Origin: Candidatus Multiplicimicrobium inquinatum
GTDB lineage: Bacteria > Omnitrophota > Omnitrophia > Omnitrophales > Aquincolibacteriaceae
Length of the DNA stretch: 64,000 bases
Reading direction: 5' to 3'
NCBI GenBank assembly: GCA_002344825.1
Contig: DDUN01000038.1
Coordinates: 21,061-85,060, forward strand
Of the stretch, positions 14,698 to 30,000 are shown in pieces. Position 1 is the stretch's first letter, and the number at the start of each line of letters is the position of its first letter. The position numbers were made by a program, and so were the translations under genes. The notes under the pieces were generated by a model. That model saw nothing but the letters and a program-made list of their open reading frames with translations, did no database searches and had not been told where the DNA came from.

Positions 14698-14719
14698 CAG
14701 TTATAATTTTGCTCGTCGC

Positions 14720-15408: not shown

Positions 15409-15418
15409 TACCAAGGAC

Positions 15419-16138
15419 ATGATGAAAAAAATTATTTTGCTCGCTGCCCTTTTTTTAATTCCCGCTTCCGCGCAGGCGTTAGATTGGGCGGGGATGCTTA
15501 AAAAGGTGTCGACATCTCAGCCCGCAACAGGGGACTCCAAAATCGCAAACGGTCTCAAAGAAGCTTTGCGTGTGGGGGCTGAAAAAGCGGTTGCGATTAC
15601 CGGTAAACAGGACGGCTACTTCAAAAACGAAGCGATTAAAATTCTTTTGCCTGAAAGACTGCGCGCCATGGAAGGCGCTTTGCGTAAAGTGGGGCTGGGC
15701 GGACAAATAGATCAGCTTGTTTTGAGCATGAACCGCGCCGCGGAAGCTGCCGCACCGCAGGCTAAAAGCATTTTTGTGAAAGCGATTTCCGAAATGACAT
15801 TCGATGATGTTCAGAAAATTTACCAAGGCGGCGACACGGCAGCGACGCAGTATTTTCAAACCAAAACTTCTCCCGAGCTGACCCGGCTTTTTAAACCCGC
15901 GGTTACCCAAAGCATGGCCGAGTACAATGTTTCCAAAATGTATCAGGGGGTTGCCGGAAAATATAACGCGTTGCCCGCAGCAAAACTTTTCCCCGCGCCG
16001 GAAGTGGAAGACTACGTTGTGAAACAGTCTTTGAGCGGTCTCTTTAAAGTTTTGGGCGATCAGGAAAAAGCGATTCGCAAAGATCCCGCCGCGCGTGTTA
16101 CCCAGCTTTTAAAGGATGTTTTTTCTCAAGCAAAATGA
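15419..16138 (+). CDS. Secreted protein of the DUF4197-like periplasmic family.
   Basis: Signal peptide MMKKIILLAALFLIPASAQA. The mature region (…IANGLKEALRVGAEKAVAITGKQDGYFKNEAIKILLPERL…) resembles DUF4197 proteins. The start is chosen at the tandem ATG at 15419 (AAGGA RBS) rather than the track start at 15356. Confidence 0.6.
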   Translation: MMKKIILLAALFLIPASAQALDWAGMLKKVSTSQPATGDSKIANGLKEALRVGAEKAVAITGKQDGYFKNEAIKILLPERLRAMEGALRKVGLGGQIDQLVLSMNRAAEAAAPQAKSIFVKAISEMTFDDVQKIYQGGDTAATQYFQTKTSPELTRLFKPAVTQSMAEYNVSKMYQGVAGKYNALPAAKLFPAPEVEDYVVKQSLSGLFKVLGDQEKAIRKDPAARVTQLLKDVFSQAK

Positions 16139-16329
16139 TCAGACTTTTGATCGTGCCGCTTTTTGTTTTTTTGCTTTGGCCCGCCTTGCTTCAGGCAGAG
16201 GAAAAAACCGGCGGGTACTTTCGTAAAGCAAAGCCTCCGGGCATTTTTGAGCGAATGAAAGAGAGCCTAAAGGAACCTTTCATTAAAAAGAAAAAAATTC
16301 AGCATCCTTATATCCGGCAAATCGATTAA
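16135..16329 (+). CDS. Hypothetical small secreted protein, 64 aa.
   Basis: The start overlaps the previous stop (ATGA). It has an N-terminal hydrophobic segment LLIVPLFVFLLWPALLQA. Confidence 0.35.
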   Translation: MIRLLIVPLFVFLLWPALLQAEEKTGGYFRKAKPPGIFERMKESLKEPFIKKKKIQHPYIRQID

Positions 16330-16370
16330 ATCCGTCCATCCGAAAGAATCAAACGTTCAACCTCAATTGA

Positions 16371-16399
16371 TTTACAGCGCAACCGGCATTCGCTATACT
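16371..16399 (+). promoter_or_regulatory. Sigma70-type promoter (TTTACA-N17-TATACT) upstream of the first coiled-coil gene.
   Basis: The hexamers have a 17-nt spacer. The -10 plus downstream leader (CTATACTCTGAATCTCTTGAAA) is ~80% identical to the promoter region at 18741-18762. Confidence 0.55.
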
Positions 16400-16502
16400 C
16401 TGAATCTCTTGAAATTTTTTTATGCGCTTCAGCAGACAGCTTGTTATTTCTGTGCCCGCGACAGTTGTTTGCCCGGAAGCCTTTTAGTCAAAGGCTGAAC
16501 GG

Positions 16503-18647
16503 ATGATAAAACCGAATTTTCCGCAGGCGCTTTTCCGCGGGCAACCCGAAAAAAAGTGGAGCTTCGTTTTTCACGAAGTTTCCGCGGAGGCACGAGCCGC
16601 TTTTTCCGCTGACCTTGCCAAAAAATATGCTTTTTCCGAAGATGAGTGCGGCGAGGTTTTAAAAAACATACCCGTTTTGTTTTTGAGCGGGCTTGTGGAA
16701 GCCACGGCACAGCAATTTATCCGGCAATGGACACTTCCGGGCGTCAAGGTTGCCTTAACGGAAGATGAGGCTGTTAAACAAAAATGCTTTCAAATCATTT
16801 GGCCTGAAGCCGCCCCTTCTCCGGATGTTGCACTGGGGAAAATCAAATCAGAAAAATACACTTCGTCACTTGACTCCGCGCCTGATTATAAAAACAGTGA
16901 CCGGGGAATTAAATTTTTAATTCAAAAGCTTGAAAGACGTGCGGCCGAACCCAAAACCGAAGCCCCTAAAGAAAATTTATCCGGCACCCCCGCGATAACG
17001 CCTCTGCCTAATCAGAAACCAATCGTGCCGCAGGTTGTTGCGGCAAGCAGCGCGCCTTTGGAGAAGCCTGTTTCGGCCGAAACGATGCAGGCGCTCAAAG
17101 ACGAACTGCAGAAGCAGTTGGAAGCGAACGAAAAACAAAAACAGATTATCGAAGCACAGGCGGCACAGCTCATAGATAAACAGGCGGAGCTTGAGCGCCT
17201 TCAGTCCCAAAAAGCAGAATCAGAAAAGCCTCCGGGTGAAGATGCTGCGGCTAAGCAGAAACTGGAAGAATTGGAAAGCGAATCAGCCCGCCTAAAACAA
17301 GAAATACAAAAAAATAGCGAGCTTTCCGCGCAAAAAGAAAGTTTTATGCGCAAAAATTTCGAAGAGCTGGAAAAAAATCTTGCAGCCGCGGAAGCCTCCA
17401 AAGTTGACATCCAAAAAGAAGCAGAAAGAAATTTGAAAGAGGCTCTTGAGGCGAAGGCCTGCGCGGAAGCGAAGCTGCAAGAACTTGAAAATGAAGCGCT
17501 CCAAAAACAAACTTCGCAGGCCTCATCCGAAATAAACGAGTCGGACGAGGGCTTGCAAGAGCAGGAAGAGGCAAAAACGAAACCCCTTCCTCCCGCGGCC
17601 CCGATTAAATCTTTGCTGAAGCAGGCGCTTCAAAAAAACAGTCAGAGCTCACCAGCCCCGATGAAATCTGTCGCGATTGAAAAAAGCCAAAATGATTTTA
17701 AAGAGAAACAAGCGGAGCTTGAGCAAGCCCTTGAGGCAGAAAAAGCTAAAGCTGCGGAAGCAGAAAAAAAATATACCCAAGCACTGGAAGATTTTAATGT
17801 GCAAAAGGAAGCGTGGCAGGAAGAAGCTAAACAGCTTGGGTTACGTAACCAAGTATTAGTAGAAAAAATGGAAAAGGAAGCGGAGGCTTTGCGAGACAGC
17901 GCGCAAGAGCTGAAAAAAAGGGCTATTTTAGCGGAAGAGGCTATGCGCAAGGCTGAACAGAGCGCAGAGGAGACAGCCCTGCGAATGAAGCAAATGACCG
18001 AGCAAGACCGCACTCCGGGTTTTGAGCAAGCGCTTGAAGCGGAGCGGTTGAGTCATGCTGATACGGAAAAAAAGTATACCGCAATGCAAGAAGAGCTTCG
18101 CTCGCAAGAAGCGAAACGGCAGGAAGAAGTTAAAGAGCTGAACCTGCGCAATCAAAAGCTGTTGGATAAATTCGAAGAGGAAAGCAATCTTTTAAAAACA
18201 AAAATAGAAGAATTGGAAAAAAGCTTGTCTTCAGCGGAAGCCATTAACCGCGAAGCCGGACAACGGCTGGAACAAGCACTGGAAGAAGAGCGCTTTAAGA
18301 CAAAAGAAGCGGAGAAAAAAAACACCGAACTTTTAGAAACGCTTAAGAGCTCTGCTGAAAAAACCGTTGCGGCGGAGCCGAATGAAAACGCAAGCGAAGA
18401 AAGCAAGCATTTGCAAAACAAACTTGCGGAAATTGAAAAGAAGTTAACGGAAAGCGAGTCTGTTCGGGAAGCGCTGGAAGCGGACAAAGAAAATGAAATC
18501 AAAGCGATGCGCGAAGCCTTGAGCGAGGTCTATGTGCATTTGTTAAGTCAGATGAAAGAAGACAATCAGAAAAAAGATTTAACTATTCAGGCGCAGGCGG
18601 CTGAACTGGAAGCGCTGCATAAAGAGCGCGGTAAAAGCGGGGCCTGA
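16503..18647 (+). CDS. Large coiled-coil protein (714 aa) with a globular N-terminal domain and three internal sequence repeats.
   Basis: Residues 1-150 are non-repetitive (…EVLKNIPVLFLSGLVEATAQQFIRQWTLPGVKVALTE…). The rest is an E/K/A/Q-rich heptad-rich sequence. Three related segments are EQALEAEKAKAAEAEKKYTQALE…, FEQALEAERLSHADTEKKYTAMQEE…LNLRNQKLL… and LEQALEEERFKTKEAEKKNTELLE…. Confidence 0.7.
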   Translation: MIKPNFPQALFRGQPEKKWSFVFHEVSAEARAAFSADLAKKYAFSEDECGEVLKNIPVLFLSGLVEATAQQFIRQWTLPGVKVALTEDEAVKQKCFQIIWPEAAPSPDVALGKIKSEKYTSSLDSAPDYKNSDRGIKFLIQKLERRAAEPKTEAPKENLSGTPAITPLPNQKPIVPQVVAASSAPLEKPVSAETMQALKDELQKQLEANEKQKQIIEAQAAQLIDKQAELERLQSQKAESEKPPGEDAAAKQKLEELESESARLKQEIQKNSELSAQKESFMRKNFEELEKNLAAAEASKVDIQKEAERNLKEALEAKACAEAKLQELENEALQKQTSQASSEINESDEGLQEQEEAKTKPLPPAAPIKSLLKQALQKNSQSSPAPMKSVAIEKSQNDFKEKQAELEQALEAEKAKAAEAEKKYTQALEDFNVQKEAWQEEAKQLGLRNQVLVEKMEKEAEALRDSAQELKKRAILAEEAMRKAEQSAEETALRMKQMTEQDRTPGFEQALEAERLSHADTEKKYTAMQEELRSQEAKRQEEVKELNLRNQKLLDKFEEESNLLKTKIEELEKSLSSAEAINREAGQRLEQALEEERFKTKEAEKKNTELLETLKSSAEKTVAAEPNENASEESKHLQNKLAEIEKKLTESESVREALEADKENEIKAMREALSEVYVHLLSQMKEDNQKKDLTIQAQAAELEALHKERGKSGA

Positions 18648-18720
18648 GATATCACGCAGAAAGCCGCCGCGGAGGACCCAAAATAGCAAAATCTCTTTCT
18701 TGTAGTGCCTTCTTCGCCGC

Positions 18721-18749
18721 TTTACAAAAGCGGTAGATTTGCCTATACT
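18721..18749 (+). promoter_or_regulatory. Sigma70-type promoter (TTTACA-N17-TATACT) upstream of tRNA-Arg.
   Basis: Same architecture and near-identical -10/leader as the promoter at 16371-16399. Confidence 0.55.
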
Positions 18750-18788
18750 CTCGACTCTTCAAAGCCGCCCCACAGAGCGGCTTTTCAT

Positions 18789-18862
18789 GCGCCCGTAGCT
18801 CAATTGGATAGAGCATCTGACTACGGATCAGAAGGTTTATGGTTCAACTCCATACGGGCGCA
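18789..18862 (+). tRNA. tRNA-Arg (anticodon ACG).
   Basis: GCGCCCG/CGGGCGC acceptor stem. D-arm is GCTCAATTGGATAGAGC. Anticodon stem-loop is TCTGA-CTACGGA-TCAGA. T-arm is TATGGTTCAACTCCATA. The discriminator is A. 74 nt. Confidence 0.85.
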
Positions 18863-19130
18863 TATTCTTTTTCTGAAAATGACCGTCTGCAGCGCACAAA
18901 TCCACTCGCCTACGCCTTGTATTCAGGTCCTTTTGAGAAAACGAATGATAAATGGATGGAGCTGAAGTGAGCCGCGCAATTTATAGGGCTTTCGCGGAAT
19001 AAGAAACAGACCTAATGTCAGATCCGCACGCAGCGAAGCCCAGGCGCGGCGAGTGGCCGACCTGAAGTGAGTGCGGCTGATTAAGCCGACATGAACAAAA
19101 GGCGCCAACTCCATACAGGCGCATATTTTT
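18863..19130. repeat. Repeat family X copy 1, about 245 bp, inserted after tRNA-Arg. It ends in a partial duplicate of the tRNA-Arg 3' end (19107-19123).
   Basis: The element shares TTTTCTGAAAA…GTCTGC, CCTTTTGAGAAAA, a GATGG…GAAGTGAGC block, a TAATGTCAGAT block and the 25-mer GGCGAGTGGCCGACCTGAAGTGA with 22179-22460. Its end is …GGCGCC followed by AACTCCATACAGGCGCATATTTTTCTG. That matches the tRNA's own 3' end plus flank (AACTCCATACGGGCGCATATTCTTTTTCTG). Confidence 0.65.
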
Positions 19131-19230
19131 CTGTTTATATCTTCTCCAGCGAATATAATTTGTTTGTGACCCATTTTTTTGAGAGCCCTTTTTTTAGACT
19201 GATTGTTTTTAAACAAAATCATTTTGTGTT

Positions 19231-21504
19231 ATGACAGAGCCGCAAAAACCTTCCGAGCCAACAGATTATTCTGACGGGCAATCCAGCTTCCAAGATCTAA
19301 CGCAGGATATTCGCCGGCTGCTATATCAACAGCAGCAAGAAACAGAAGGCGAAAGGAAAAAAAACGCAGAGTTACTGGAAATTTCTAAAAATCTTCAAAC
19401 GCTTTTAAATGAAGCGGTCTCGGATCTCGAACAAGAAAAAATCCGCCTGGCAGAAGCAAAAAGAGAGCTTGGCGGAAGCGAGCAAAGCCTTTCTGATTTT
19501 AAAGAGGCGTCGGCGAAACAAATTCGCGAAAATCTTCAGAAAATTACCGACCACGAACGCGACATAGAAGCTTTAAAAAAAGCAAAACTGGATAACGAAA
19601 AAGAAATCAAAGAAAAAACAGAGGCAATTTGCCGACTAGAAAGCAAGGCTGCGGAGCATCTCGCTGCGCTCCAATCTCAATCAAGCGAAAAAGAACGCGA
19701 GCAAGCTCAGGCTCAGGCAAAACAGCAAGAATTAGAAAACGAGCTTCGACAGACACGGCTTAAAAATGAAGCCCTCGAAAAAGAGCGCGCGGAGGCAGAT
19801 GCGAAGATAAGCCAAATTAAAGAAGCAAGCACAAAAGAAATTAGCGAGGCAAGGGAAAGATCTGCTGAACACCAAGCCTTGGCCGAAAAGCTTGCTGATG
19901 AAAACGCGCTCCTGAAAAAAGAAACTGAAAAACAAAAAGCAGCTTATGAAGCCGAGCTCGAAATTAAAAAATCAAAAATCATAGAATTGGAAAAAACAGG
20001 CGAAGATTTGCGGCTAGCCGTAGAAAATAAAGGGCGCGAGATTGACGGTGCTGTGAAAGAAAAAGCAGAGTCTCTTGCGAGCGAAAGAGCGCAAGCTCAA
20101 ATAAAGCATAAAGAGCTGCAAGACAGGCTCGACGCATTAAGCCGTGATTATGACGCGACGGCCGCAAAGTTAAAAGAAGCGGAGCAGAAAAGCGCTGTCG
20201 ACACCGGAGTTATCGAGCAGCAAAAGAGGGAGGCTGAGGAAGCAGCTTCAAACCTGGCTCAGCATCGCGAATTACAAACGCAGGCGGAAAAAAAGTTGGC
20301 GGAGCAGTCCGCGCAAAGCGAACAGCAGTTGCAAGCGCTCCGGGCTGAAAAAGAAGATTTAATCCAGAAACATAAAGAGCTGGAAGGCAAACTTGATGCC
20401 CTGAGCCGTGATTATGCCGCGGCGACCGCGAAATTAAAAGAAGCGGAGGAGGAAAGCGCCGCCGCCGCCGAAGTTATCGAGCAGCAAAAGAAGGCGGTTG
20501 CGGAAACCGCTTCAAATCTTACTCAGCAACGCGAATTAAATGCACAGGCAGAAAACAGACGGGTAGAGCAGTTGACGCAGAGCGAACGGCAACTTCAGGC
20601 ATTGCAGGGCGAAAAGGAAGATTTGGTTCGAAAGCACAAAGAGTTGCATGAGAAGCTTGAAGCGGCAACGCGTAATTTTCTGGAAACAACCGCAAAACTT
20701 ACAGAAGCGGAAGAAAAAAACAGGGTCAATTTAAATGATCTAGAAAATCAAAAAAAAGAACATGCCGAAGCGATTTCCAGGCTGGCGGAGCAACAAAATC
20801 TGAGTATTGAAAAAGAAGCGGCGGTACGCCAGCTAGCTGAAAATAAGCGCCAAATCGAAGTATTGGGCAGTGAAAAGGACGGACTCGCTCAAAAGCAAAA
20901 ATCTCTGGAGGCTAAACTGGTTGAGCTTCAGGTTAGAGAAGAAGCTTTGCGCCAAGAAAAACAGAAACAGCATGAGCTTTTGGACGAACACATTAAAAAA
21001 GAACAGGCGTTGCGCGATAAGTATTCAGCACTTGAGGCGGTTAAAAACACTATGTTTACCGGCTGGAAAGATGAGCGGGAGCGACTTGCCCAGGCAACCG
21101 CTTCCCTTACAGATCTTCAAAGCAAGCTTGTAGCGGCAGAAGAAGAAGCGAAGAAATGGAAAGAATCCGCCGCTCTTCTTCAAACACAAAATTCGAAAAC
21201 GGGAACGGAAAATAAAGTTTGGACGATCGGAGCGGAAGAAGACGGCTTGAAAAATAAAAATCAACTTCTTTCGCAGGCGCTTGATTCCGAGCGGGCGCGC
21301 GCAAAGAAAATGGAAGAGGACTTAGCGCGGTTGCGGCAGGTTATAGCGCTTGGGCAGCCGAAAGCGAGCGCGCCGGAAATAAAGTCCGCTATTTTGCCAG
21401 TAGCGCCTAAGCCGACGACAGGCAAAGACAAGGTGAATGGGTTGGAGCTCATTTTGGCGCTGGAAGATAAAAAAGAACCTCCGCAAAGCGGCAAAACAAA
21501 ATAA
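19231..21504 (+). CDS. Coiled-coil protein (757 aa) with ~88-aa tandem repeats.
   Basis: Almost entirely heptad-type and E/K/Q/A-rich. At least three tandem repeats are present: HKELQDRLDALSRDYDATAAKLKEAEQKSA…, HKELEGKLDALSRDYAAATAKLKEAEEESA… and HKELHEKLEAATRNFLETTAKLTEAEEKN…. Confidence 0.7.
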   Translation: MTEPQKPSEPTDYSDGQSSFQDLTQDIRRLLYQQQQETEGERKKNAELLEISKNLQTLLNEAVSDLEQEKIRLAEAKRELGGSEQSLSDFKEASAKQIRENLQKITDHERDIEALKKAKLDNEKEIKEKTEAICRLESKAAEHLAALQSQSSEKEREQAQAQAKQQELENELRQTRLKNEALEKERAEADAKISQIKEASTKEISEARERSAEHQALAEKLADENALLKKETEKQKAAYEAELEIKKSKIIELEKTGEDLRLAVENKGREIDGAVKEKAESLASERAQAQIKHKELQDRLDALSRDYDATAAKLKEAEQKSAVDTGVIEQQKREAEEAASNLAQHRELQTQAEKKLAEQSAQSEQQLQALRAEKEDLIQKHKELEGKLDALSRDYAAATAKLKEAEEESAAAAEVIEQQKKAVAETASNLTQQRELNAQAENRRVEQLTQSERQLQALQGEKEDLVRKHKELHEKLEAATRNFLETTAKLTEAEEKNRVNLNDLENQKKEHAEAISRLAEQQNLSIEKEAAVRQLAENKRQIEVLGSEKDGLAQKQKSLEAKLVELQVREEALRQEKQKQHELLDEHIKKEQALRDKYSALEAVKNTMFTGWKDERERLAQATASLTDLQSKLVAAEEEAKKWKESAALLQTQNSKTGTENKVWTIGAEEDGLKNKNQLLSQALDSERARAKKMEEDLARLRQVIALGQPKASAPEIKSAILPVAPKPTTGKDKVNGLELILALEDKKEPPQSGKTK

Positions 21505-21515
21505 TTTTGGATTAA

Positions 21516-22016
21516 ATGATGGAAAACATACACGAGCATTTTATGAAGGAAGCGATCAAGCAAGCGGTGATTGCTTTTGAACGCGGAGAAGTTCCCGTTG
21601 GCGCGGTCGTTGTTTATAAAAATAAAGTTATTGCGCGCGGGCACAATCAAATGGAAACCTTACATGATCCGACAGCTCACGCGGAAATGATCGCAATGAC
21701 CGCTGCTTCCGAGAAGTTATCGGAAGGGAGCGATAAACATCGCGGTTCTTTGGAAGGCTGTACGCTTTATGTCACGATGGAGCCTTGCCCGATGTGTGCT
21801 GGGGCGCTTGTGATTTCAAAATGTTCCAGCGTCGTTTATGGCGCGCGGGATGTAAAAGCCGGAGCCTGTGAAAGCTTGTACCGTATCCCGCAAGATGACC
21901 GCCTCAACCATCGCCTTGCTGTTCTGGGCGGCGTGATGGAAGAAGACGCAAAAACACTTTTGCGGGAGTTCTTTGTGACACTACGGAATAATAAAAAGAA
22001 TCTGCCGCTGAATTAG
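21516..22016 (+). CDS. tadA: tRNA adenosine(34) deaminase.
   Basis: CDA-fold zinc motifs HAEMIAM and PCPMCAGAL. The N-terminus is [17 protein letters not shown]…VPVGAVVV. 166 aa. Confidence 0.9.
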
Positions 22017-22044
22017 GCCGAAACACCCCTGCCAAGATTGGTTT

Positions 22045-22072
22045 TGAGAAATTCCATAAGATAAGCTAGTAT
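22045..22072 (+). promoter_or_regulatory. Candidate promoter TTGAGA-N16-TAGTAT upstream of tRNA-Ser(GGA).
   Basis: The hexamer spacing fits sigma70. It lies 15 nt upstream of the tRNA 5' end. Confidence 0.35.
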
Positions 22073-22086
22073 ACGCCCCTCTACGG

Positions 22087-22178
22087 GGAGAGGTCGCATA
22101 GCCTGGTCTAGTGCGCACGCCTGGAAAGTGTGTGAACCTGAAAGGGTTCCGTGGGTTCGAATCCCACCCTCTCCGCCA
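22087..22178 (+). tRNA. tRNA-Ser (anticodon GGA), class II, with CCA encoded.
   Basis: GGAGAGG/CCTCTCC acceptor stem. Anticodon stem-loop is CACGC-CTGGAAA-GTGTG (one G·U pair). Long variable arm is AACCTGAAAGGGTTCC. T-arm is GTGGGTTCGAATCCCAC. Discriminator G plus CCA. Confidence 0.8.
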
Positions 22179-22479
22179 TTTTCTGAAAAAGGGCGTCTGC
22201 TTCGCCGCGCTCTTCACTCCCTTGTGCGGCGTAGGTTTCACTACGCCTCCGCGGTCGTTTGATCGCATCTCGCATTCAACCCTTTTTGAGAAAATAGCTT
22301 TTGATAGATGGGATTCGAAGTGAGCGACGCCTTATTTTAAACTGCGCCGAATATAAATCTGACTTAATGTCAGATTTACAAGAGGCGCTTTCTTTATAAG
22401 GAGCGAGTGGCCGACCCGCAGTGATTGCCGCTGACTAAGCGGACAAGAACGAAGGGCGCCGTTAATCCCACCCTCTCCG
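22179..22479. repeat. Repeat family X copy 2, about 280 bp, after tRNA-Ser(GGA). It ends in a partial duplicate of that tRNA's 3' end (22461-22479).
   Basis: It has the same block order as copy 1 and includes the 25-mer GGAGCGAGTGGCCGACCCGCAGTGA (22399-22423). It ends …GGGCGCC followed by GTTAATCCCACCCTCTCCG, which matches the tRNA 3' end GTTCGAATCCCACCCTCTCCG. Confidence 0.65.
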
Positions 22480-22598
22480 TTCTTTATTCTGCCGGCCATG
22501 GCTGCGTTACGCTCCCTCAAATTTTCTCGACGTACACTTTTAGTACGCCTCAAAAATTTTCGGTCGCAAGCCTTGCCCTGACCGGCATCTTAAAGAAC
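22480..22598. mobile_element. MITE-like element Y copy 2, with degenerate terminal inverted repeats. It lies directly after the partial tRNA 3' duplicate.
   Basis: TTCTTTATTCTGCCGG…CCGGCATCTTAAAGAA ends. The interior is ~85% identical to 14807-14924. Confidence 0.45.
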
Positions 22599-22710
22599 GT
22601 ATGGTTCATGGGATTTGAAGTGAACCGCTCTATTATTTAGTGAAAATAAGCCCTAAGAACAAAGACGCGGCGGACCTAACTATGAATCCGTTTTTCGGCG
22701 ATGGGTTATC

Positions 22711-23193
22711 TTAGTGATGCCCACCGCAACAGGTTTGATAGCGCTCGGCTGGAATGTTTTCCATGGCCACAAAAATTCCGGCAACCTCTTTCTCTGTCAG
22801 CAGCTGATCCATGGTGGGGTAAAGAACCTGTTCTTCTTTTTGATTATGGCCGTTCAGAATTTCAAGAAGCATCTCTTCTTCGCTCTCGCTGGAAGAATCT
22901 CCCCGGCGAACTTTGTCGTGAATCCCTTCCAGGAGAGCGCCGATGCGCCGATGCTCTTCACGCATCACAAAAGTAGGTCCTCCGTCTTTTATCCCGCTTT
23001 TTTCTTCGAATAAAGGGAAAAGAACATCTTCTTCCCAAACAATATGCCGCTTAAGACCGTTGTTAAAAGATTTAAAATAAGGCTTCGCCTCTGCCATTGA
23101 TTCATATTTCTTTTTCTGAAACTGATGAAAGATGGCGTCTAGGCGGTTGTGATCTGCTTCGAAATATTGGGTAATTGTATTAGTTGTTTTCAT
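22711..23193 (-). CDS. Hemerythrin-like domain protein, possibly RIC/ScdA-like and NO/iron-centre related.
   Basis: 160 aa. Hemerythrin cation-binding His/Glu pattern is present (…DHNRLDAIF…EEDVLFPLFE…EHRRIG…HNQKEEQVLYP…). The C-terminus is CCGGHH. A GGAGGA RBS is present. It is co-oriented and probably co-transcribed with the upstream cupin gene. Confidence 0.65.
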   Translation of the reverse strand: MKTTNTITQYFEADHNRLDAIFHQFQKKKYESMAEAKPYFKSFNNGLKRHIVWEEDVLFPLFEEKSGIKDGGPTFVMREEHRRIGALLEGIHDKVRRGDSSSESEEEMLLEILNGHNQKEEQVLYPTMDQLLTEKEVAGIFVAMENIPAERYQTCCGGHH

Positions 23194-23217
23194 CGTGCTC
23201 CTCCGAAATGTTTTCTG

Positions 23218-23610
23218 TTAGGCGCCGAACGTAATTAGGAACGCACACTCTGTGCGCGCTCTCACACTGTGCAAAATACCCTTATGCAGACTCAGCATCT
23301 GCCCCGCTTTTAAGGCGACGATTTCCATGTCCGTAATAAACTCCAGCTCCCCTTCAAGAGCTTGAACGCTTATTGCATGATCCGCTTTGTGCGGCTTAAT
23401 TAGGGCGCCGCTGTGAAGCGCAATAACGACCATGCGCAATCCGAGACCCATATTTAAGGTGATGGAATTACGGTCTGTGCTTTTCCACGCTTCTTCGCTT
23501 TTGATTTTGGCGATCAACTTAGGGATTTCATAAGTTAAAATCGGCGCGTCCATGATTCTTTGTTCGCGCCTTCCTGTCTCAGTCATAGCGGACTCCTGTC
23601 TGCTCTTCAT
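23218..23610 (-). CDS. Cupin-fold domain protein.
   Basis: 130 aa. The His-rich pattern in a beta-rich context (…LHSGALIKPHKADHAISVQALEGELEF…LHKGILHSVRA…) is consistent with a cupin domain. The start may be an internal Met (MTETG… or MDAPIL…). Confidence 0.45.
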   Translation of the reverse strand: MKSRQESAMTETGRREQRIMDAPILTYEIPKLIAKIKSEEAWKSTDRNSITLNMGLGLRMVVIALHSGALIKPHKADHAISVQALEGELEFITDMEIVALKAGQMLSLHKGILHSVRARTECAFLITFGA

Positions 23611-23645
23611 TGGGCTAATACTACGAATTCACCCTTGTGTTTCTT

Positions 23646-23676
23646 AAAGATGTATTTATAATGCATGTATAAATTA
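23646..23676. promoter_or_regulatory. NsrR-type operator candidate in the divergent promoter between the cupin/hemerythrin operon and the nsrR-like gene.
   Basis: AAAGATGTATTTATAATGCATGTATAAATTA contains AAGATGTATTT. This matches the gammaproteobacterial NsrR half-site AAGATGyATTT. A partial second half (AATGCAT) follows, and a TATAAT lies inside. Confidence 0.45.
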
Positions 23677-23706
23677 CCATAATGAGAGGACATAAAAAAG
23701 GTTTTT

Positions 23707-24144
23707 ATGCAGCTTACATATTTTTCAGATTATTCCTTGCGCGTACTTATATATCTCGCCGTAAAAAAGGATAAAGCTTCCATCGCCGAAATCAGCCGAG
23801 CCTTCGGTATTTCAAAAAATCATTTGGTAAAAACCGCACAGCATTTGATAAAGCTTGGCTACATCAGCTCGATTCGCGGCAAGACAGGCGGCATTACACT
23901 GGCCAAGCCACCGAGATCCATCAATCTTGGTAAAATTATCCAACAGCTCGAACCGCATATGGATATCGTTGAGTGTTTCACCCCGCAAACGAAAACTTCT
24001 TGTGCTATTACACCCGTGTGTCGCCTCAAAAGTGTCTTTCAGGAAGCAAAGCGGGCCTTCATTTCGGCTCTGGAAAAATATTCTCTCGCAGATATTGTAC
24101 GGAATAAGGAGGCGCTTTCCCGATACATTCTGCAGCCTGCTTAG
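23707..24144 (+). CDS. nsrR: Rrf2-family regulator of NsrR/IscR type with a three-Cys cluster ligand motif.
   Basis: 145 aa. The N-terminal HTH is …YSLRVLIYLAVKKDKASIAEISRAFGISKNHLVKTAQHLIKLGYISSIRGKTGG…. The Cys arrangement is CFTPQTKTSCAITPVC (C-x9-C-x5-C). It is adjacent to NO reductase and hemerythrin-like genes. Confidence 0.7.
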   Translation: MQLTYFSDYSLRVLIYLAVKKDKASIAEISRAFGISKNHLVKTAQHLIKLGYISSIRGKTGGITLAKPPRSINLGKIIQQLEPHMDIVECFTPQTKTSCAITPVCRLKSVFQEAKRAFISALEKYSLADIVRNKEALSRYILQPA

Positions 24145-24279
24145 CTGCGGCCGGCTCCGCCTGGTTCAAAGGAAATAGGTGCTTTTTTAAATTTTAAATG
24201 TTGTTTTGGCAGACAGTAATAGATGCAATCATATAGTGCCGGGCAGAAAAATAAGAAACAAAGATCAACAGGAGAAAAC

Positions 24280-26559
24280 ATGAGTCACAAAAAGCTATGG
24301 ATTTGTTTTGCCGCAATCATCATTGTTTCTTTTTCAGTTCTGGGATACTACGGTTCAGAAATTTATCGACAAGCACCGCCCATTCCCGACCGCTTCGTCA
24401 CGACGGACGGACGGACGCTCTTCACGGGCCAAGACGTCAAAGACGGTCAGAACGCCTGGCAGTCCACCGGAGGGCATCAACTCGGAACGATCTGGGGGCA
24501 TGGGGCCTACGTCGCACCGGACTGGACAGCGGATTGGCTGCACAGGGAAGCTGAATTTATCCTCAACAATTGGGCAAGCAATGAAGGCGCTTCCGATTAT
24601 AAAGCGCTCGATGAAGAAAAGCAGGCCGCGCTCAAAGCCCGCCTTCAAAAAGAGCTGCGCACAAATTCCTACGACGCCGAATCGGACACGGTGACCGTCA
24701 GTCCCCAGCGCGCCGAGGCCATCGAAGCCAACAGCCGCTATTACGCCTCTCTTTTCATGAACGATCCTGCGATGGCCTTCGAGCGCGACGCCTACGCCAT
24801 GAAGGCAAATACAATCAAAGATCCCGAGCGCATGCGACAGTTGAATGCGTTTTTTTTCTGGGCGACCTGGGCGTGTGTTACAGAACGTCCCGGGCAAGAT
24901 ATCACGTATACGAACAACTGGCCCCCCGAAGAACTTGTCGGCAATCGCCCTGCCGCTGAACTGCTTCTTTGGACGGGCGTCAGCGTCATTCTTCTCATCG
25001 CGGGTATCGGCCTGTTGGCTTTCTATTACGCTGCAAACCGTAACAAGGAGGAGTTGCCTGAGGGAGGCTATCCTGAAAAAGATCCGCTGCTTGGCCTCAA
25101 GCCGACTCCGTCGATGATGGCGACGTTGAAATATTTCTGGGTCGTGACAGCGCTCATCGTTGTGCAGGTGCTCATGGGCGGGGTGACAGCCCACTATGGT
25201 GTGGAAGGAACGGGGCTTTATGGTATTCCTCTTTCCGAGTGGCTGCCCTACTCACTCACGCGCACCTGGCACGTACAGCTTGGAATTTTTTGGATCGCGA
25301 CATCCTGGCTCGCCACCGGCCTTTTTCTTGCACCGGCTGTTTCAGGGCATGAACCGAAATTCCAACGCCTTGGCGTTAACATGCTTTTTGGTGCACTGCT
25401 CGTCATTGTCGCCGGATCTCTCATAGGGCAGTGGTTTTCAATTATGCAAAAGCTCGGCTATGTTGAAGGATTCTGGTTCGGGCATCAGGGCTATGAATAT
25501 GTTGACCTCGGCCGTTTCTGGCAGATATTCCTTCTCGTCGGTCTTTTCCTCTGGCTCTTTCTCATGACGCGCGCGATCTGGCCCGCGTTCAAGAAAGATG
25601 CACCCAACAAACATCTTCTTGGCCTTTTCCTGATTTCGTCGGCGGCGATCGCGCTCTTCTACTCCGCCGGCCTCATGTGGGAAAGGCAAACGCATTTGGC
25701 CATCGCGGAATACTGGCGTTGGTGGGTTGTTCATCTTTGGGTGGAAGGTTTCTTCGAAGTCTTCGCCACGGTTGTCATTGCGTTTCTCTTCGTACGCATG
25801 AAACTTCTGGCCTCGCAACTTGCCACGACGGCCGTTCTTTTTTCGACGAACGTCTTTCTGCTCGGCGGCATCATCGGAACGTTTCATCACCTCTATTTCT
25901 CGGGAACGCCGACGGCGGTGCTTGCTCTCGGCGCCACCTTTAGTGCGCTGGAAGTCGTGCCGCTTGTCCTCATCGGTTTCGAGGCTTACCACAATCTCAC
26001 ACTGAGCCGCGCCACGCCGTGGATCACAGCCTACAAGTGGCCGATCTATTGTTTTATCGCGGTCGCATTTTGGAATTTGGTAGGCGCGGGCGTCTTCGGG
26101 TTTCTCATCAATCCGCCCATAGCTCTCTATTATATGCAGGGTCTGAACACGACTCCCGTCCACGCGCATACGGCACTCTTCGGTGTTTACGGAATGCTCG
26201 GCATAGGGCTTATGCTTTTCGTACTGAAGGGACTGGCTGCGCGCAACGTGTGGAAAGACCCAGTCATCAGCTTTGCCTTCTGGTCGATCAACATTGGGTT
26301 AGCGCTTATGGTGCTCCTAAGTGTCCTGCCGATCGGTCTTGCACAGGCAGTCGCGAGTCACAAGGAAGGTCTGTGGTACGCTCGCTCCATCGAGTTCACG
26401 CAAACGGGCCTTATGGATAATCTGAGATGGATGCGCGTCATTGGCGATACAATCTTCGCGGCGGGCACGCTGGCTCTGGCGTGGTTTATAATCGGACTAA
26501 AAACCGGCTGGTCTCTCAAGAAGGAAGAGGATCGAATTTTCACTTCAGAAAAGGCCTAA
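24280..26559 (+). CDS. norZ: Quinol-dependent nitric oxide reductase (qNOR, single-subunit NorZ/NorB type).
   Basis: The N-terminal TM helix plus periplasmic region (MSHKKLWICFAAIIIVSFSVLGYYGSEIYRQAPPIPDRFVTTDGRTLFTGQDVKDGQNAWQSTGGHQLGTIWGHGAYVAPDWTADWLHRE) is highly characteristic of qNOR. A 12-TM haem-copper oxidase-like core with conserved His follows. An AGGAGA RBS precedes the ATG at 24280. Confidence 0.92.
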   Translation: MSHKKLWICFAAIIIVSFSVLGYYGSEIYRQAPPIPDRFVTTDGRTLFTGQDVKDGQNAWQSTGGHQLGTIWGHGAYVAPDWTADWLHREAEFILNNWASNEGASDYKALDEEKQAALKARLQKELRTNSYDAESDTVTVSPQRAEAIEANSRYYASLFMNDPAMAFERDAYAMKANTIKDPERMRQLNAFFFWATWACVTERPGQDITYTNNWPPEELVGNRPAAELLLWTGVSVILLIAGIGLLAFYYAANRNKEELPEGGYPEKDPLLGLKPTPSMMATLKYFWVVTALIVVQVLMGGVTAHYGVEGTGLYGIPLSEWLPYSLTRTWHVQLGIFWIATSWLATGLFLAPAVSGHEPKFQRLGVNMLFGALLVIVAGSLIGQWFSIMQKLGYVEGFWFGHQGYEYVDLGRFWQIFLLVGLFLWLFLMTRAIWPAFKKDAPNKHLLGLFLISSAAIALFYSAGLMWERQTHLAIAEYWRWWVVHLWVEGFFEVFATVVIAFLFVRMKLLASQLATTAVLFSTNVFLLGGIIGTFHHLYFSGTPTAVLALGATFSALEVVPLVLIGFEAYHNLTLSRATPWITAYKWPIYCFIAVAFWNLVGAGVFGFLINPPIALYYMQGLNTTPVHAHTALFGVYGMLGIGLMLFVLKGLAARNVWKDPVISFAFWSINIGLALMVLLSVLPIGLAQAVASHKEGLWYARSIEFTQTGLMDNLRWMRVIGDTIFAAGTLALAWFIIGLKTGWSLKKEEDRIFTSEKA

Positions 26560-26739: not shown

Positions 26740-28245
26740 ATGCCCATTTCCCTATACGATAGCCGGATGAAATTTTCCAAGCAAGATACGCTTCAGCTTA
26801 AAAAACAGGGGATCTCCGTTTCTCTGGCTGCCGATCAGCTCGAGCGGCTCAAAAAAGGCTTCCCGTTTGTGCGGCTGATGAAGCCCTGCACGGCGGGTGA
26901 CGGAATTTTCCGGCTGAATACGCGCGAACAAAGAAGCGCCGAAAAGAAATTTCAGGCCGAAGTTTCCCGCAAAACCATTCTCAAATTTGTACCCGCGTCC
27001 GGAGCGGCCAGCCGCATGTTTCAGTTTTTAGAAGATGCGGATGCTAAGCATGACGCCGCGAAACAGAAATTTTTGGAAGCATTGCCGCGATTTGCTTTCT
27101 ATGCGGAGTTAGCTGCCGCTTTGAAAAAAAAGGGGCATGACATTACGGCGCTCGCCCGCAAAAAAGATCTGAAAACAATTATCAGCGCACTTTTGGAAAA
27201 AGACGACCTTGGTTACCGCGACGCGCCAAAAGGCATGATTCTTTTTCACGGCCGAGGAAAAAACGCCCGCACCGCATTTCAGGAACAACTGGATGAAGCG
27301 CGGATTTTCGCGGATAAGAAAAAAATTTCTCATTTGCATTTCACGTTGCCGCCCGCGGCACGTAAAGCTGTACGACTGCATTTAAAGCAATCCGCTCGTG
27401 GGGCAAAATTTGTTATCGGGGATTCAATTCAAAGCCCCGCATCCGAATGTCTCGCGATGGAGAAAAACGGTAAGCCGGCGCGTAATGACAAGGACAGTTT
27501 GTTGCTGCGCCCGTCCGGGCACGGGGCCTTGCTTGAAAACATCAACCGGCTTAAAGCCGACTTGATCTATGTCAAAAACATCGACAACATTTTGCCGGCC
27601 GGAAAGCGTAAAGAAGCCGACCGGTGGAAAAAAATTCTGACCGGTTTTTTCCTTTTCAAACAGGAAGAAGTTTTCCGCGCGCAGGAAATTCTCGCGCAAA
27701 AGAAAATGCAGCCGCGCGACTTGCTCTTCACGCTGGTGCTCGCGCAGGAGCTGGGCTGGGATGCCGCACATCCCGGTGCGGAGGGCTCCAGAAAATCGCT
27801 GGAACATTTTTTTAATCGTCCTTTTCGCGTCTGCGCCATGGTGCCGAATGTCGGCGAACCCGGCGGCGGCCCTTTTTGGATCAAAGATAGCCATGGGAAA
27901 GTTTCGGCACAGGTGATCGAATCAGCCGAGGTGAATCTAAAAGACAAAGCGCAGGAAAAAATTTGGCGGGCTTCGACTCATTTCAACCCCGTTGATTTTG
28001 TGTGCGGAGTTTATGATTGCCGCGGAAAGAAATATAATCTTCCGGAATTTTGCGATCCCGAGCGTGGATTGATTGCCGAAAAAAGCTATCAGGGCCGGTC
28101 TATTCGCGTGATGGAACTTCCGGGGCTTTGGAACGGCAGCATGGCCGACTGGCTTACGATTTTTGTCGAGGTGCCGGGCGTTACTTTTGCTCCGGTTAAA
28201 ACAGTTTTAGATTTACTCAGAAAAGAACATCAGGTTAAAAAGTAA
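26740..28245 (+). CDS. UDP-sugar pyrophosphorylase-like nucleotidyltransferase (UDPGP family: UGPase/UAP1-like).
   Basis: 501 aa. The P-loop-like stretch KFVPASGAASRMFQ resembles the UAP1/UGP L(x)2GxGTxM loop. The stretch LLLRPSGHGALLENINRLKADLIYVKNIDNIL resembles the P(D/S)G(H/N)G…DN(L/I) region. It abuts pgm, consistent with a Glc-6-P to Glc-1-P to UDP-Glc route. The assignment rests on motifs only. Confidence 0.45.
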   Translation: MPISLYDSRMKFSKQDTLQLKKQGISVSLAADQLERLKKGFPFVRLMKPCTAGDGIFRLNTREQRSAEKKFQAEVSRKTILKFVPASGAASRMFQFLEDADAKHDAAKQKFLEALPRFAFYAELAAALKKKGHDITALARKKDLKTIISALLEKDDLGYRDAPKGMILFHGRGKNARTAFQEQLDEARIFADKKKISHLHFTLPPAARKAVRLHLKQSARGAKFVIGDSIQSPASECLAMEKNGKPARNDKDSLLLRPSGHGALLENINRLKADLIYVKNIDNILPAGKRKEADRWKKILTGFFLFKQEEVFRAQEILAQKKMQPRDLLFTLVLAQELGWDAAHPGAEGSRKSLEHFFNRPFRVCAMVPNVGEPGGGPFWIKDSHGKVSAQVIESAEVNLKDKAQEKIWRASTHFNPVDFVCGVYDCRGKKYNLPEFCDPERGLIAEKSYQGRSIRVMELPGLWNGSMADWLTIFVEVPGVTFAPVKTVLDLLRKEHQVKK

Positions 28246-29892
28246 ATGGAAACCCAGATTCAAAAAGTAAAGACACAGCCTTTTCAGGACCAAAAGCCCG
28301 GAACCTCCGGCTTGCGTAAAAAAGTATCTGTATTCAGCCAACCGCGGTATGTCGAAAACTTTACGCAGGCAATTTTTAACGCACTGCGGGCGGGCGGGGA
28401 AACCATTGAAGGCAAAACACTTGTTGTGGGCGGAGACGGCCGTTATTACAACCGCGAGGCCATTCAGAAAATTATCCGCATAGCATCCGGCAATGGTTTT
28501 GGAACCATTCTTGTTGCGCAGAACGGAATTTTATCGACCCCGGCGGCTTCCTGCGTTATCCGCCGCCAACAAGCTTTTGGCGGAATTATTCTTTCCGCAA
28601 GCCATAATCCCGGCGGGCCCGAGGGCGATTTCGGCATGAAATATAATATTTCAACCGGCAGTTCCGCGCCTGAAAAAATCACTGAAAAAATCTATGCTGA
28701 GTCTTTGAAATTAACGGAATATCTCGAAGCACCGGTGCCTTCGGTGGATTTAACCAAGCCTGGCATGACGCGCTGGGGCAAAACCACGATCGCGGTTTTT
28801 GACGGATTAAATGATTACATCGAGTTAATGCAAAGCTTGTTTGATTTTGAAAGTATCCGTGCGCTTTTAAAATCGGGTTTTAAAATCAAATTTGACGCGA
28901 TGCACGCGGTAACCGGGCCTTACGCGAGAAAAATTTTTATCGATTTACTGGGTGCCGCGCCGGCGGATATTTTGAATGCTGCGCCCAAAGAGGATTTTGG
29001 CGGTGGGCATCCCGATCCGAATCTGGTTTATGCCGAAGAGCTTGTTCAAATTCAGTTTGGAAAAAACGCGGCTGATTTCGGCGCGGCATCCGACGGTGAC
29101 GGTGACCGGAATATGATTCTCGGAAAAAACTTTTTTGTTTCTCCCGGAGATTCCCTGGCGATGATTGCCGAACATTTATCCGCCTGCGCGCCGGGATATA
29201 AACAGGGGCTGAAGGGCGTGGCGCGCTCCATGCCCACTAGCGCAGCGGTGGACCGGGTTGCGAAAGCGCTAAATATTCCCTGCCACGAAACACCGACGGG
29301 CTGGAAGTTTTTTGGCAATTTGATGGATGCCGGGCTTTGTACAATTTGCGGCGAAGAAAGCTTTGGAACCGGCTCCGATCATGTCCGCGAAAAAGACGGA
29401 CTGTGGGCGGTTTTGGCATGGCTTTCCATTTTGGCAAAAACGCGCAAACCTGTTGAGCAAATTGCAAAGGAGCATTGGAAAAAATTTGGACGATCTTATT
29501 TTGCGCGTCACGACTATGAAGCGCTTGAAGCAGGCCCCGCGGCTGAAATGATGCGCGAAGCGGTGTTTATTTTTCCGCGTCTTGTCGAGCAGCAAATCGG
29601 CGACGGTAATGTGGTTTCAACCGATGATTTTTGTTACGAAGACCCGACCGATAAAAGCTATTCGAAAAACCAGGGACTTCGGATTTTTTTGGATAACGGC
29701 GCGCGGATTGTGATGCGCCTTTCCGGAACCGGGACACGGGGCGCCACCTTGCGGCTTTATTTTGAACGTTACTCAGCCGAAGAACTTGACCGCGATCCGG
29801 AGGAGTATTTAAAGCCGCTTTATGAATGGACGCGGCAATTTCTAAAACTCAATGAACGCTTCGGCCGCGATGAGCCGGACGTAATAACTTAA
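28246..29892 (+). CDS. pgm: Phosphoglucomutase, alpha-D-glucose-phosphate specific (PGM1-type).
   Basis: 548 aa. The active-site Ser loop is SASHNPGGPEGDFGMKYN. The N-terminus is …QKPGTSGLRKKVSVF…. The metal-binding region is DGDGDRNMILG. The sugar-binding region is GEESFGTGSDHVREKDG. Confidence 0.93.
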   Translation: METQIQKVKTQPFQDQKPGTSGLRKKVSVFSQPRYVENFTQAIFNALRAGGETIEGKTLVVGGDGRYYNREAIQKIIRIASGNGFGTILVAQNGILSTPAASCVIRRQQAFGGIILSASHNPGGPEGDFGMKYNISTGSSAPEKITEKIYAESLKLTEYLEAPVPSVDLTKPGMTRWGKTTIAVFDGLNDYIELMQSLFDFESIRALLKSGFKIKFDAMHAVTGPYARKIFIDLLGAAPADILNAAPKEDFGGGHPDPNLVYAEELVQIQFGKNAADFGAASDGDGDRNMILGKNFFVSPGDSLAMIAEHLSACAPGYKQGLKGVARSMPTSAAVDRVAKALNIPCHETPTGWKFFGNLMDAGLCTICGEESFGTGSDHVREKDGLWAVLAWLSILAKTRKPVEQIAKEHWKKFGRSYFARHDYEALEAGPAAEMMREAVFIFPRLVEQQIGDGNVVSTDDFCYEDPTDKSYSKNQGLRIFLDNGARIVMRLSGTGTRGATLRLYFERYSAEELDRDPEEYLKPLYEWTRQFLKLNERFGRDEPDVIT

Positions 29893-30000
29893 AAGTTAAA
29901 ACTAAAGAGTCAAAACCATAGCTAAAAACTTTTAAATGCCCGAGTCGTTTTGACTTTTGGGCTATTGTTTTTAGATTTAACCTTTGACCTATAACCTTTT

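Follow-up and report, generated by a model that had tools for sequence, protein, structure and literature searches.

Structured units with antisense T-arm copies at tRNA genes of Omnitrophota and Planctomycetes: a candidate tRNA-specific insertion element

An intact tRNA gene accompanied by a displaced fragment of its 3' end is the signature of integration into tRNA genes, the principle on which Islander is based (PMC4383910). The positions within tRNA genes used for integration have been sorted into sublocation classes (Williams 2002, cited in PMC4383910), and crossover in the T-loop is documented for integrases such as Ms6 (PMC1762012). Here we analyse element X, a short non-coding unit located at tRNA genes in a 64,000-nucleotide (nt) stretch of Candidatus Multiplicimicrobium inquinatum (assembly GCA_002344825.1, contig DDUN01000038.1, positions 21,061 to 85,060; hereafter the window), with the copy following tRNA-Ser(GGA) as the main example. 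Each unit combines an antisense copy of the T-arm of its own tRNA with a conserved core that is predicted to fold into a three-way junction, and is followed by a displaced sense copy of the tRNA 3' end. Recombination sites that fold from one DNA strand, so that a duplex version of the target is displayed, are exemplified by integron attC and by the attP(+) hairpin of CTX phage, on which XerCD acts.

ARAGORN finds four tRNA genes in the window, all on the + strand. Among them, tRNA-Ser(GGA) occupies 22087-22178 (+; Rfam tRNA, 50.9 bits) and is preceded by a promoter-like site at 22044-22072. Its T-loop TTC is located at 22156-22158, which places the junction of C56 with R57 between 22158 and 22159; the functional ('regenerated') 3' part of the gene, 22159-22178, is named A. 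The second copy of element X (X2) covers 282 nt (22179-22460) and terminates in GGCGCC (22455-22460). X2 starts with the spacer S, a palindromic module of ~120 nt (TTTTCTGAAAAAGGG...CCCTTTTTGAGAAAA; 22179-22300, +; nhmmer 22180-22297, E 8e-24), which has a minimum-free-energy hairpin of -44 kcal/mol and shares 74-78% identity with a solo copy at 32775-32876. The spacer is followed by the antisense arm GATGGGATTCGAA (22307-22319, +), the reverse complement of T54-N66 of tRNA-Ser(GGA) with 1/13 mismatches (the perfect complement would be GGTGGGATTCGAA); the best upstream match, taken as a control, has 5 mismatches. Within the arm, TGGGATT pairs with 22464-22470 to form helix P1, and GAA is complementary to the T-loop TTC. 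The conserved core K (22317-22460, +; covariance-model match 22306-22473, 47.5 bits, E 9e-9; fold z = -5.6) is composed of the junction strand GAAGUGA, helix P2 (22324-22402, tip CUGAC-UUAAU-GUCAG), the 22-mer GCGAGTGGCCGACCCGCAGTGA (22403-22424), the covarying hairpin P3c (22425-22446) and the terminal segment GAACGAAGGGCGCC (22447-22460). In helix P3a, GGCCGACCC (22409-22417) pairs with GGGCGCC (22454-22460). The displaced partial tRNA 3' end A' (GTTAATCCCACCCTCTCCG; 22461-22479, +) provides the 3' strand of P1. A' is a junction variant with TT inserted after R57, and its last 16 nt are identical (16/16) to 22160-22175.

The complete unit order is tRNA, a spacer of 8-190 nt that is usually a hairpin, the antisense arm, GAAG(N)GAGCC, a helix, the conserved block GCGAGUGGCCGACCYGNAGUGA, another helix, GAACGNARGGCGCC and the tRNA sense copy from R57; the shortest spacers, of 8-11 nt, are found in loci L013 and L003 (loci outside the window are referred to by such numbers). 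The core spans ~140 nt, is conserved and ends in GGCGCC. A cognate antisense copy of the T-arm is present inside every unit, which the original prediction had not described. This arm, 12-13 nt long and located ~10 nt before the conserved part, complements the T-loop and the 3' strand of the T-stem. X is thus a composite of palindromic spacer, antisense arm and core, since the cognate arm precedes the conserved part. Most arms have 0-3/13 mismatches to their own tRNA and two have 4 (L006, L018), whereas tRNAs without the element give at best 4-6; upstream controls typically give 4-6 as well, with 2-3 in four cases. The junction GGCGCC/R57 occurs in every full copy with the canonical core, GTAGCC and GGCGGT being found in divergent copies, and the nucleotide preceding the junction is always C. 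The direct repeat begins at R57 in all copies, mostly stops at the tRNA 3' end, and measures 7-195 nt with a mode of 17-22 nt. X2, the tRNA-Ser copy of L010, L017, L020 and L022 share the sub-variant with TT after R57 (GGCGCC-R-TT-A58...). Inside P1, the displaced copy differs from the tRNA by C to U opposite G at 4/6 differing positions, keeping the pair. In one locus (L028, ~1040-1120, -), the displaced tRNA-Glu 3' fragment is interrupted after 9 nt by a ~60-nt hairpin-forming insertion, and the remaining tRNA-Glu end (TTAGGGACGCCA) comes after it.

Single-sequence folds, RNAalifold on nine short forms and the covariance model built from those agree on a three-way junction of helices P1, P2 and P3. 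P1 is formed between the antisense arm and the sense copy, and P2 is a variable helix extended by non-canonical GUGA/GAGU pairs. The base of P3 joins the conserved GGCCGACCY with RGGCGCC and contains one bulged C and one bulged A; beyond it follow a GNA/GNA loop, G-C and U-A pairs, tandem G.A pairs and hairpin P3c. The only unpaired junction bases are GAA, complementary to the T-loop TTC, and the GGCGCC/R57 boundary is the exact point at which P3 stacks on P1. In an alignment of 27 sequences that was fitted to the model, standard pairs fill 94.5% of cells, compared with 74% in shuffles and 34-46% with slid partners. Double-sided changes occur at 29/33 pairs, those in P1 being partly automatic because both of its arms derive from one tRNA, and 0/500 shuffles reach any of these measures. 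The Y:R pair of P3a, for example, reads U-A in 13, C-G in 12 and U-G in one. This analysis bears out the constraint on the hairpin proposed in the original prediction as a structural one, P3c being a helix tip in a three-way junction with family-wide covariation. The compensatory change reported between the two hairpins is likewise real: P3c reads GUG-CGGCU-GAUUA-AGCCG-ACAU (19071-19092) in X1, the copy at tRNA-Arg(ACG), and UUG-CCGCU-GACUA-AGCGG-ACAA (22425-22446) in X2, and pairing is kept in homologues with the stems CCGC/GCGG, CGGC/GCCG, CUUGC/GCAAG and CAGC/GCUG. The folded strand is probably the tRNA-sense strand, because G.U pairs outnumber A.C pairs (26 to 13) and the internal loops on the + strand are purine-rich and RNA-like (GUGA/GAGU, GA/GA, GNA/GNA). 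Box C/D-like guide and kink-turn readings of the GA motifs are suggestive and were set aside.

The shape of the junction also brings to mind a small self-cleaving or self-ligating ribozyme acting at GGCGCC/R57, which would process the transcript or mediate an exchange of tRNA 3' halves at the RNA level. In its topology the junction resembles a type I hammerhead: one helix is open and two are closed, with a corresponding phosphate position, the site between the 3' strands of a closed and the open helix and opposite purine-rich strands, and tandem G.A pairs on the middle helix. The position of the junction relative to the three helices is invariant, with C always preceding it, and P2 is flanked by UGA-[helix]-GA(G), as hammerhead stem II is flanked by U7-G8-A9 and G12-A13. 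Moreover, hepatitis delta virus (HDV)-like 'theta' ribozymes of gut phages lie directly next to tRNAs. The likeness is one of topology only. The catalytic nucleotides are not conserved: CUGANGA ... GAAA and a cleavage triplet are missing, the unit strands being GAAGUGA and GAGU, and C3-U4-G5-A6 (the strand reads G-A-A-G) and the A15.1-U16.1 pair are absent. No hammerhead covariance model matches, no ribozyme family scores at E <= 5, and the junction nucleotides are paired on both sides, unlike known cleavage sites. A ribozyme is therefore an unlikely explanation of the units.

In the window, the 22-mer common to the copies, GCGAGTGGCCGACCNGNAGTGA, is present 3 times, where 0.01 occurrences would be expected. 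Scans for exact matches to it found ten loci in 185,579 species genomes (8 in Candidatus Omnitrophota, 1 in Planctomycetales and 1 chance match within an Ilumatobacter coding region) and 19 additional loci in metagenomes. Since only perfect 22-mers were sampled in this way, the true distribution is wider. Together they yield 25 genuine copies outside the window. In 21 of these, a tRNA gene of the same orientation precedes the copy by 70-280 nt; of the remaining 4, two are truncated by contig ends and two represent one solo sequence seen twice. The covariance model identifies 27 full-length copies at E < 1e-3, including three in the window. At least 17 anticodons or tRNA species are occupied, namely Met, Thr(TGT), Thr(CGT), Tyr, Ala(GGC), Ala(CGC), Glu, Arg(CCG), Arg(ACG), Leu(TAG), Leu(CAG), Gly(TCC), Val, Asp, Lys, Asn, Ser(GGA) and Ser(TGA). 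Across the loci that were retrieved, the element is present at roughly half of the tRNA genes and missing from the other half. Units measure 110-280 nt, contain no conserved open reading frame (ORF) and always lie on the tRNA strand inside tRNA operons, as in L003 with the order Thr-X-Tyr-X-Gly. Chance similarity or a local segmental duplication could be considered in view of the three to four window copies lying within 8 kb. The excess of the 22-mer and the 25 copies elsewhere, whose arms match their own tRNA, speak against this, and the same architecture at >=17 tRNAs in many genomes excludes local duplication; we regard such an origin as having a negligible probability. Rfam 15 at the gathering threshold returns tRNAs only, and a scan of 12500-23500 at E <= 5 adds weak spurious matches only. 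Viral contigs, searched with two patterns, gave one chance match and then none, and blastn against plasmids and phages gave no match. In the searchable literature on tRNA-linked miniature or structured elements, no description of such a unit was found.

The window contains two further complete units with the same organization. X1, at tRNA-Arg(ACG) (18788-18863, +; ARAGORN), spans 18788-19133 on the + strand with its tRNA (covariance model 18953-19117, 61.5 bits, E 4e-12). It is composed of a palindromic spacer (18864-18946), the antisense arm GGATGGAGCTGAA (18954-18966; perfect complement GTATGGAGTTGAA), a core ending in GGCGCC at 19101-19106, and the displaced 3' end with trailer AACTCCATACAGGCGCATATTTTTCTG (19107-19133). 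tRNA-Ser(TGA) (14719-14807, +; ARAGORN) carries a complete divergent unit (14719-15063, +), as the covariance model matches 14932-15064 (41.2 bits, E 3e-7); this full core had not been noticed before. Here the spacer Y1 (14808-14928) precedes the antisense arm GAAGGGATTCGAA (14933-14945; 1/13 mismatches; perfect complement GGAGGGATTCGAA), the divergent core ends in GTAGCC at 15048-15053, and the displaced fragment GAATCCCTTC lies at 15054-15063. In addition, a core fragment with the 22-mer and half of P3c, lacking arms and the GGCGCC end, lies at 14585-14642 (+), with no covariance-model match. It is located 110 nt upstream of tRNA-Ser(TGA) with no preceding tRNA, and is probably the relic of a lost unit. 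A weak covariance-model match at 63748-63858 (15.6 bits, E 0.5), with no tRNA near, is probably noise.

Directly behind A' lies Y2 (22480-22602, +; nhmmer E 3e-25), which shares 88% identity across 136 nt with Y1, the stretch directly after tRNA-Ser(TGA). Y is not a separate element type; it is the palindrome that served as spacer in an earlier unit of the X type, now decayed. The remnant of this unit (22608-22689, +; motif match 22610-22625) consists of the arm ATGGGATTTGAA with GAAGTGAAC (22608-22625) and a decayed, shortened core that gives no covariance-model match. Its antisense arm, 22608-22619, fits tRNA-Ser(GGA), a third fragment GAATCC lies at 22684-22689, and homology to the Y1 unit fades past the antisense arm. 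The two tRNA-Ser 3' ends differ at one base, at which the arm after Y1 has A and the arm after Y2 has T; each arm thus fits its own tRNA, although the spacers are 88% identical. The order tRNA-Ser(GGA), X, partial tRNA 3' copy and Y, as originally predicted, therefore stands in all its sequence statements, including the coordinates, the 16/16 identity and the 88% identity of Y. The proposed nesting of tRNA-targeted insertions also stands as a successive array, with X2 newer and the Y2 unit older and displaced; what falls is the division into two element types.

The 5' third of both X and Y belongs to one palindromic repeat family, a further addition to the original prediction. A profile of the five window palindromes recovers all five with nhmmer (E 5e-12 to 3e-26) and copies in six other loci, giving 10 copies in the window and the 6 loci. 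The palindrome, ~115 nt long, has variable terminal inverted repeats around a conserved central hairpin (ACGYAC...GTRCGCCTC). Its contexts are varied: solo intergenic, upstream of tRNAs, away from tRNA 3' ends, and in one case on the opposite strand. A solo module lies between two ORFs at 32773-32888 (+; nhmmer E 8e-23), with neither tRNA nor core, and further copies not associated with 3' ends are found in L022 (1044-1154, -), L023 (4664-4770) and L007 (2098-2200). The palindrome is hence an independent dispersed hairpin repeat, because copies also occur away from tRNA 3' ends, and it often fills the spacer position between tRNA and core. The idea that Y is a tRNA-targeted element of the miniature inverted-repeat transposable element (MITE) type does not survive these observations. 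Likeness to MITEs or repetitive extragenic palindromes is confined to the spacer module, with its dispersed imperfect palindromes in varied contexts and orientations. One of the listed X copies (32805-32885) comprises the palindromic module only, and another (14582-14610) is a core fragment without arms.

Of the systems described so far, elements that integrate into tRNA genes come closest to the units in the way they work. As in tyrosine-integrase tRNA islands (PMC4383910, PMC1762012), insertion is in the T-loop region, a new tRNA 3' end is supplied, the old end forms the far direct repeat, tandem arrays occur at one tRNA, and the identity block reaches the tRNA 3' end. Unlike these islands, the units measure 110-280 nt instead of kilobases, carry neither integrase nor cargo, place a covarying three-way junction over the crossover point together with an internal antisense target copy, and are found at roughly one in two tRNAs of the loci retrieved. 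The units therefore show the intact tRNA and the displaced fragment of an island and lack its internal integrase gene. One could regard them as cargo-less scars of conventional integrase islands or prophages, functionless and with attL and attR side by side. The regenerated tRNA with displaced fragment is the island signature (PMC4383910), and one copy is located at the edge of a 10-kb defence island. The size of the units is, in addition, near that of lambda-type attP. Such scars are nevertheless quite improbable: it is implausible that islands at >=17 tRNAs in many genomes shrank independently to one and the same minimal form, double-stranded protein-binding arms would not covary as observed (29/33 pairs doubly changed) nor need an antisense target copy, and none of the 27 full copies contains or adjoins an integrase.

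We tentatively favour, at somewhat under even weight, the view that X is an integrative element with specificity for the T-loop, non-coding and non-autonomous, for whose movement an enzyme encoded elsewhere would be responsible. The integrated-element reading follows from the intact tRNA with its displaced 3' fragment in direct orientation, the accepted integration signature. It is further supported by what the sequences show directly: the anatomy of the units, their association with tRNAs, the match of each arm to its tRNA, the covarying fold, the constant junction, the turnover among relatives and the decay of outer units. Site-specific recombination as the route of insertion, an enzyme working in trans and the fold as its substrate are inferred. 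A unit would consist of a tRNA copy from R57 to the 3' end, serving as the working 3' end, the hairpin spacer, an antisense copy of T54-~N65, and the core ending in GGCGCC. It would sit between C56 and R57 of the T-loop, so that the original 3' end would be displaced downstream as a partial copy. In a single-stranded form (RNA or + DNA), the arm would pair with the sense copy as P1 and the core would make P2 and P3. This fold may act as a recognition and recombination module that shows the target T-arm as a helix beside the crossover point, and a site-specific recombinase encoded elsewhere would swap strands with the T-loop of the matching tRNA gene. The integrated order (target 5' part; sense copy, spacer, antisense copy, core; target 3' part) would be the product expected from a folded single-stranded circle. 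Repeated insertion at one tRNA would move older units outward, where decay would set in, as exemplified by Y2.

Several features of attC sites and the CTX attP(+) hairpin are shared by the units: an inverted target-like pair, variable helices that keep their structure better than their sequence, conserved bulges of one base each (the C and the A of P3a), and an integrated order matching single-strand exchange with a folded circle. Unlike those sites, the unit has a third helix and 36 strongly conserved nt, and its target is the tRNA T-loop, not attI or dif. The attC R''/R' boxes (RYYYAAC / GTTRRRY) are not fitted by the unit arms ...ATTCGAA and GAATCC / GTTAATCC, read directly, and the neighbourhood consists of tRNA operons and housekeeping genes, with no integron integrase or cassette array. 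With MITEs and with the cis-mobilizable elements (CIMEs) derived from ICEs, the units have in common that they are short, non-coding, presumably trans-mobilised and multicopy per genome. They differ in their strict T-loop specificity and in lacking transposase-type terminal inverted repeats and a fixed-length target duplication: the arms are target copies, the direct repeat varies from 7 to 195 nt, and no parent insertion sequence was found. Target-site duplication by staggered nicks would account for the variable repeat length and an easy change of tRNA; it was rejected, as repeats most often stop at the tRNA 3' end and X2 and Y2 do not share a spacer.

A doubtful but not negligible variant is that the module is the specificity determinant, possibly the catalyst, of a nucleic-acid-programmed mobile element. 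The arms could then read both strands of the T-arm, with the free GAA serving as a toehold for the universal TTC, and some partner or a ribozyme activity at GGCGCC/R57 could splice the element into the arm-matched tRNA; both of these are possible at the same low weight. The occurrence of one core in >=17 tRNAs would be explained, because the arms would direct insertion to a matching T-arm. Like the bridge RNA of IS110 and the omega-RNA of IS200/IS605, the units have an end module with target-matching sequence and a ~17-nt target-identical 3' segment after the scaffold. Unlike in these guide-RNA elements, the two target-matching segments pair together and are not displayed in open loops, and the 'guide' also matches the resident tRNA gene. 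No IS110, TnpA, TnpB or IscB genes are present near the units, there is no Rfam match, and the adjacent ORF expected for an IS110 bridge RNA is missing. Ends of the IS200/IS605 type were provisionally set aside since the left and right hairpins are unlike, the left one (the spacer) being variable and different from P3c; no tnpA or tnpB was seen in the loci inspected. The T-loop reads GTTC ahead of the junction, the tetranucleotide beside which IS91 inserts, and an IS91-type rolling circle is taken as a lead only.

Comparison of relatives reveals turnover at single tRNA genes. The tRNA-Ser(GGA) gene is identical in three genomes (the window, L010 and L033) and its surroundings differ. The window carries X2 and the Y2 remnant; L010 has another core subtype, a short terminator-like hairpin spacer and a displaced copy of 10 nt; L033 has no element. 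In L033 the tRNA and its promoter are inverted, which precludes an exact empty-site alignment. Movement between tRNAs is suggested by the 88% identical Y-type spacers at the two tRNA-Ser genes, whose arms each carry the base of their own tRNA. X2 is intact beside tRNA-Ser(GGA), while the Y2 unit farther out keeps its spacer and arm and has a decayed core; a second degenerate unit is also present in L008, L009 and L023. In L005 (466-842), a pseudo-tRNA-Leu, represented by its 5' part with an anticodon-arm insertion, runs at its T-loop into a hairpin with a decayed core (578-738). A degenerate 3' fragment comes next, and then directly an intact tRNA-Leu(CAA) (755-842); a duplicate apparently took the place of the tRNA-Leu that bears the element. 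L034 (3571-3740, -) holds a solo core (GC content 0.72) whose arms are intact and of the tRNA-Asn type; it is the same as L016 9059-9228 and L024. It is located in a ~10-kb defence island with no tRNA within 19 kb, directly upstream of an MntA/HepT toxin-antitoxin pair; the island also contains Mrr, a type IIG restriction-modification enzyme, a XerD-like integrase and, at its far end, a large serine recombinase. The island integrase of L024/L034 was considered as the autonomous partner and rejected, as it belongs to a very widespread, highly conserved XerD-like family, sits among restriction-modification genes and is absent from all other loci.

A number of observations weigh against a mobile element. 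The main weakness is the lack of any enzyme gene: neither the units nor their immediate flanks yielded a gene for a recombinase, a transposase or a reverse transcriptase, and the one integrase seen, in L024, has no tblastn match in the window or at any other locus. A switch to another tRNA should be difficult for an element equipped with its own 3' end, yet >=17 tRNAs are occupied. The searches of viral contigs, phages and plasmids gave nothing similar. Cores within one genome are 56-86% identical and near-identical copies are lacking, which leaves no sign of a recent wave of movement. Between genomes, copies located at the same tRNA (L008/L014; X1 of the window/L010) differ by compensatory changes; this indicates long-standing selection on the fold and suggests that it acted in place, as expected for a functional RNA. 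In L008 (5893-6010) and L009 (2481-2560), the duplicated tRNA 3' end and spacer are 100% identical between units (40-43 nt), and the cores of the paired units are only 65-75% alike or partly deleted. This uneven divergence fits neither simple tandem integration nor uniform decay. Finally, X2 folds equally well on both strands (z = -5.6 each), so that energy is uninformative on the strand.

A serious rival is a tRNA-linked functional RNA or ribozyme. The core and arms may be a structured non-coding RNA that the host has retained, transcribed together with the tRNA and active in tRNA biology, the duplicated end being a scar of its origin; we consider this possible, though rather doubtful. Its conceivable roles, held at an equally low weight, include precursor processing, folding control and a ribonucleoprotein scaffold; in folding control, the antisense arm might, with no better prospect, have two alternative pairing partners, the T-arm of the tRNA itself and the copy downstream, acting as a decoy. 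Co-transcription would be in line with the position of the units on the tRNA strand inside tRNA operons, with the promoter-like sites upstream of tRNAs, with the lack of any terminator called between tRNA and core in the window, and with spacers as short as 8-11 nt. A host function also agrees with the strong sequence conservation across two phyla, the purine-rich RNA-like loops, the compensatory evolution at the same tRNA (L008 versus L014), the retention of the tRNA-adjacent unit while distal units decay, and the pair-preserving C to U changes in the displaced arm. Against it stand the tRNAs in the same loci that lack the element, about half of the total, and L033, in which the identical tRNA-Ser(GGA) has none. 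Moreover, core subtype and spacer vary at the same tRNA between relatives, some spacers resemble strong terminators (L006, L010-Ser, L028), a solo copy exists without a tRNA, and no known RNA family fits. To our knowledge, no known function would fit such a host RNA either.

The surroundings of the array differ between relatives. Between the X2/Y2 array and DUF4301, the window contains a 4.2-kb block (22711-26559) encoding hemerythrin, a 130-aa ORF, Rrf2 and a NorB-like oxidase; a tRNA fragment was sought at the far end of this block and none was found. In L033 (GCA_003535755.1, 2403-2670), tadA and tRNA-Ser(GGA) are followed by DUF4301-PGM-ABC-ABC2-CorA without this block; these genes occupy 26740-32764 in the window. 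A 757-aa ORF between tRNA-Arg and tadA has an internal 264-nt tandem duplication at 20104-20631 (75% identity), and its protein has one detectable relative only in a collection of 5.8 billion proteins; following this relative led to the element-free tRNA-Ser(GGA) of L033. The fourth tRNA gene, tRNA-Ser(GCT), is located at 13142-13233 (+; ARAGORN). Two giant + strand ORFs of 5487 aa (36202-52665) and 2606 aa (54110-61930) are typical of Omnitrophota.

Among described families of RNAs and mobile elements there is none that the units match, and they have the look of a new kind of insertion element specific to tRNAs. If mobile, the units would be the smallest tRNA-gene-specific integrative elements known, and the first to have as their conserved content a folded nucleic-acid module holding antisense and sense copies of the target. 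They would point to base-pair-programmed site selection at the T-loop, among the most conserved sequences in biology, and would bear on how tRNA genes become insertion hot spots. A programmable landing site at which the host gene is repaired upon insertion would also be of interest for genome engineering. If the units are instead a host RNA, they would represent a new, widespread, covariation-supported RNA class of the Planctomycetes-Verrucomicrobia-Chlamydiae (PVC) group, coupled physically and by sequence to individual tRNAs. Under either reading, the units explain partial tRNA copies and pseudo-tRNAs in the annotation of these phyla.

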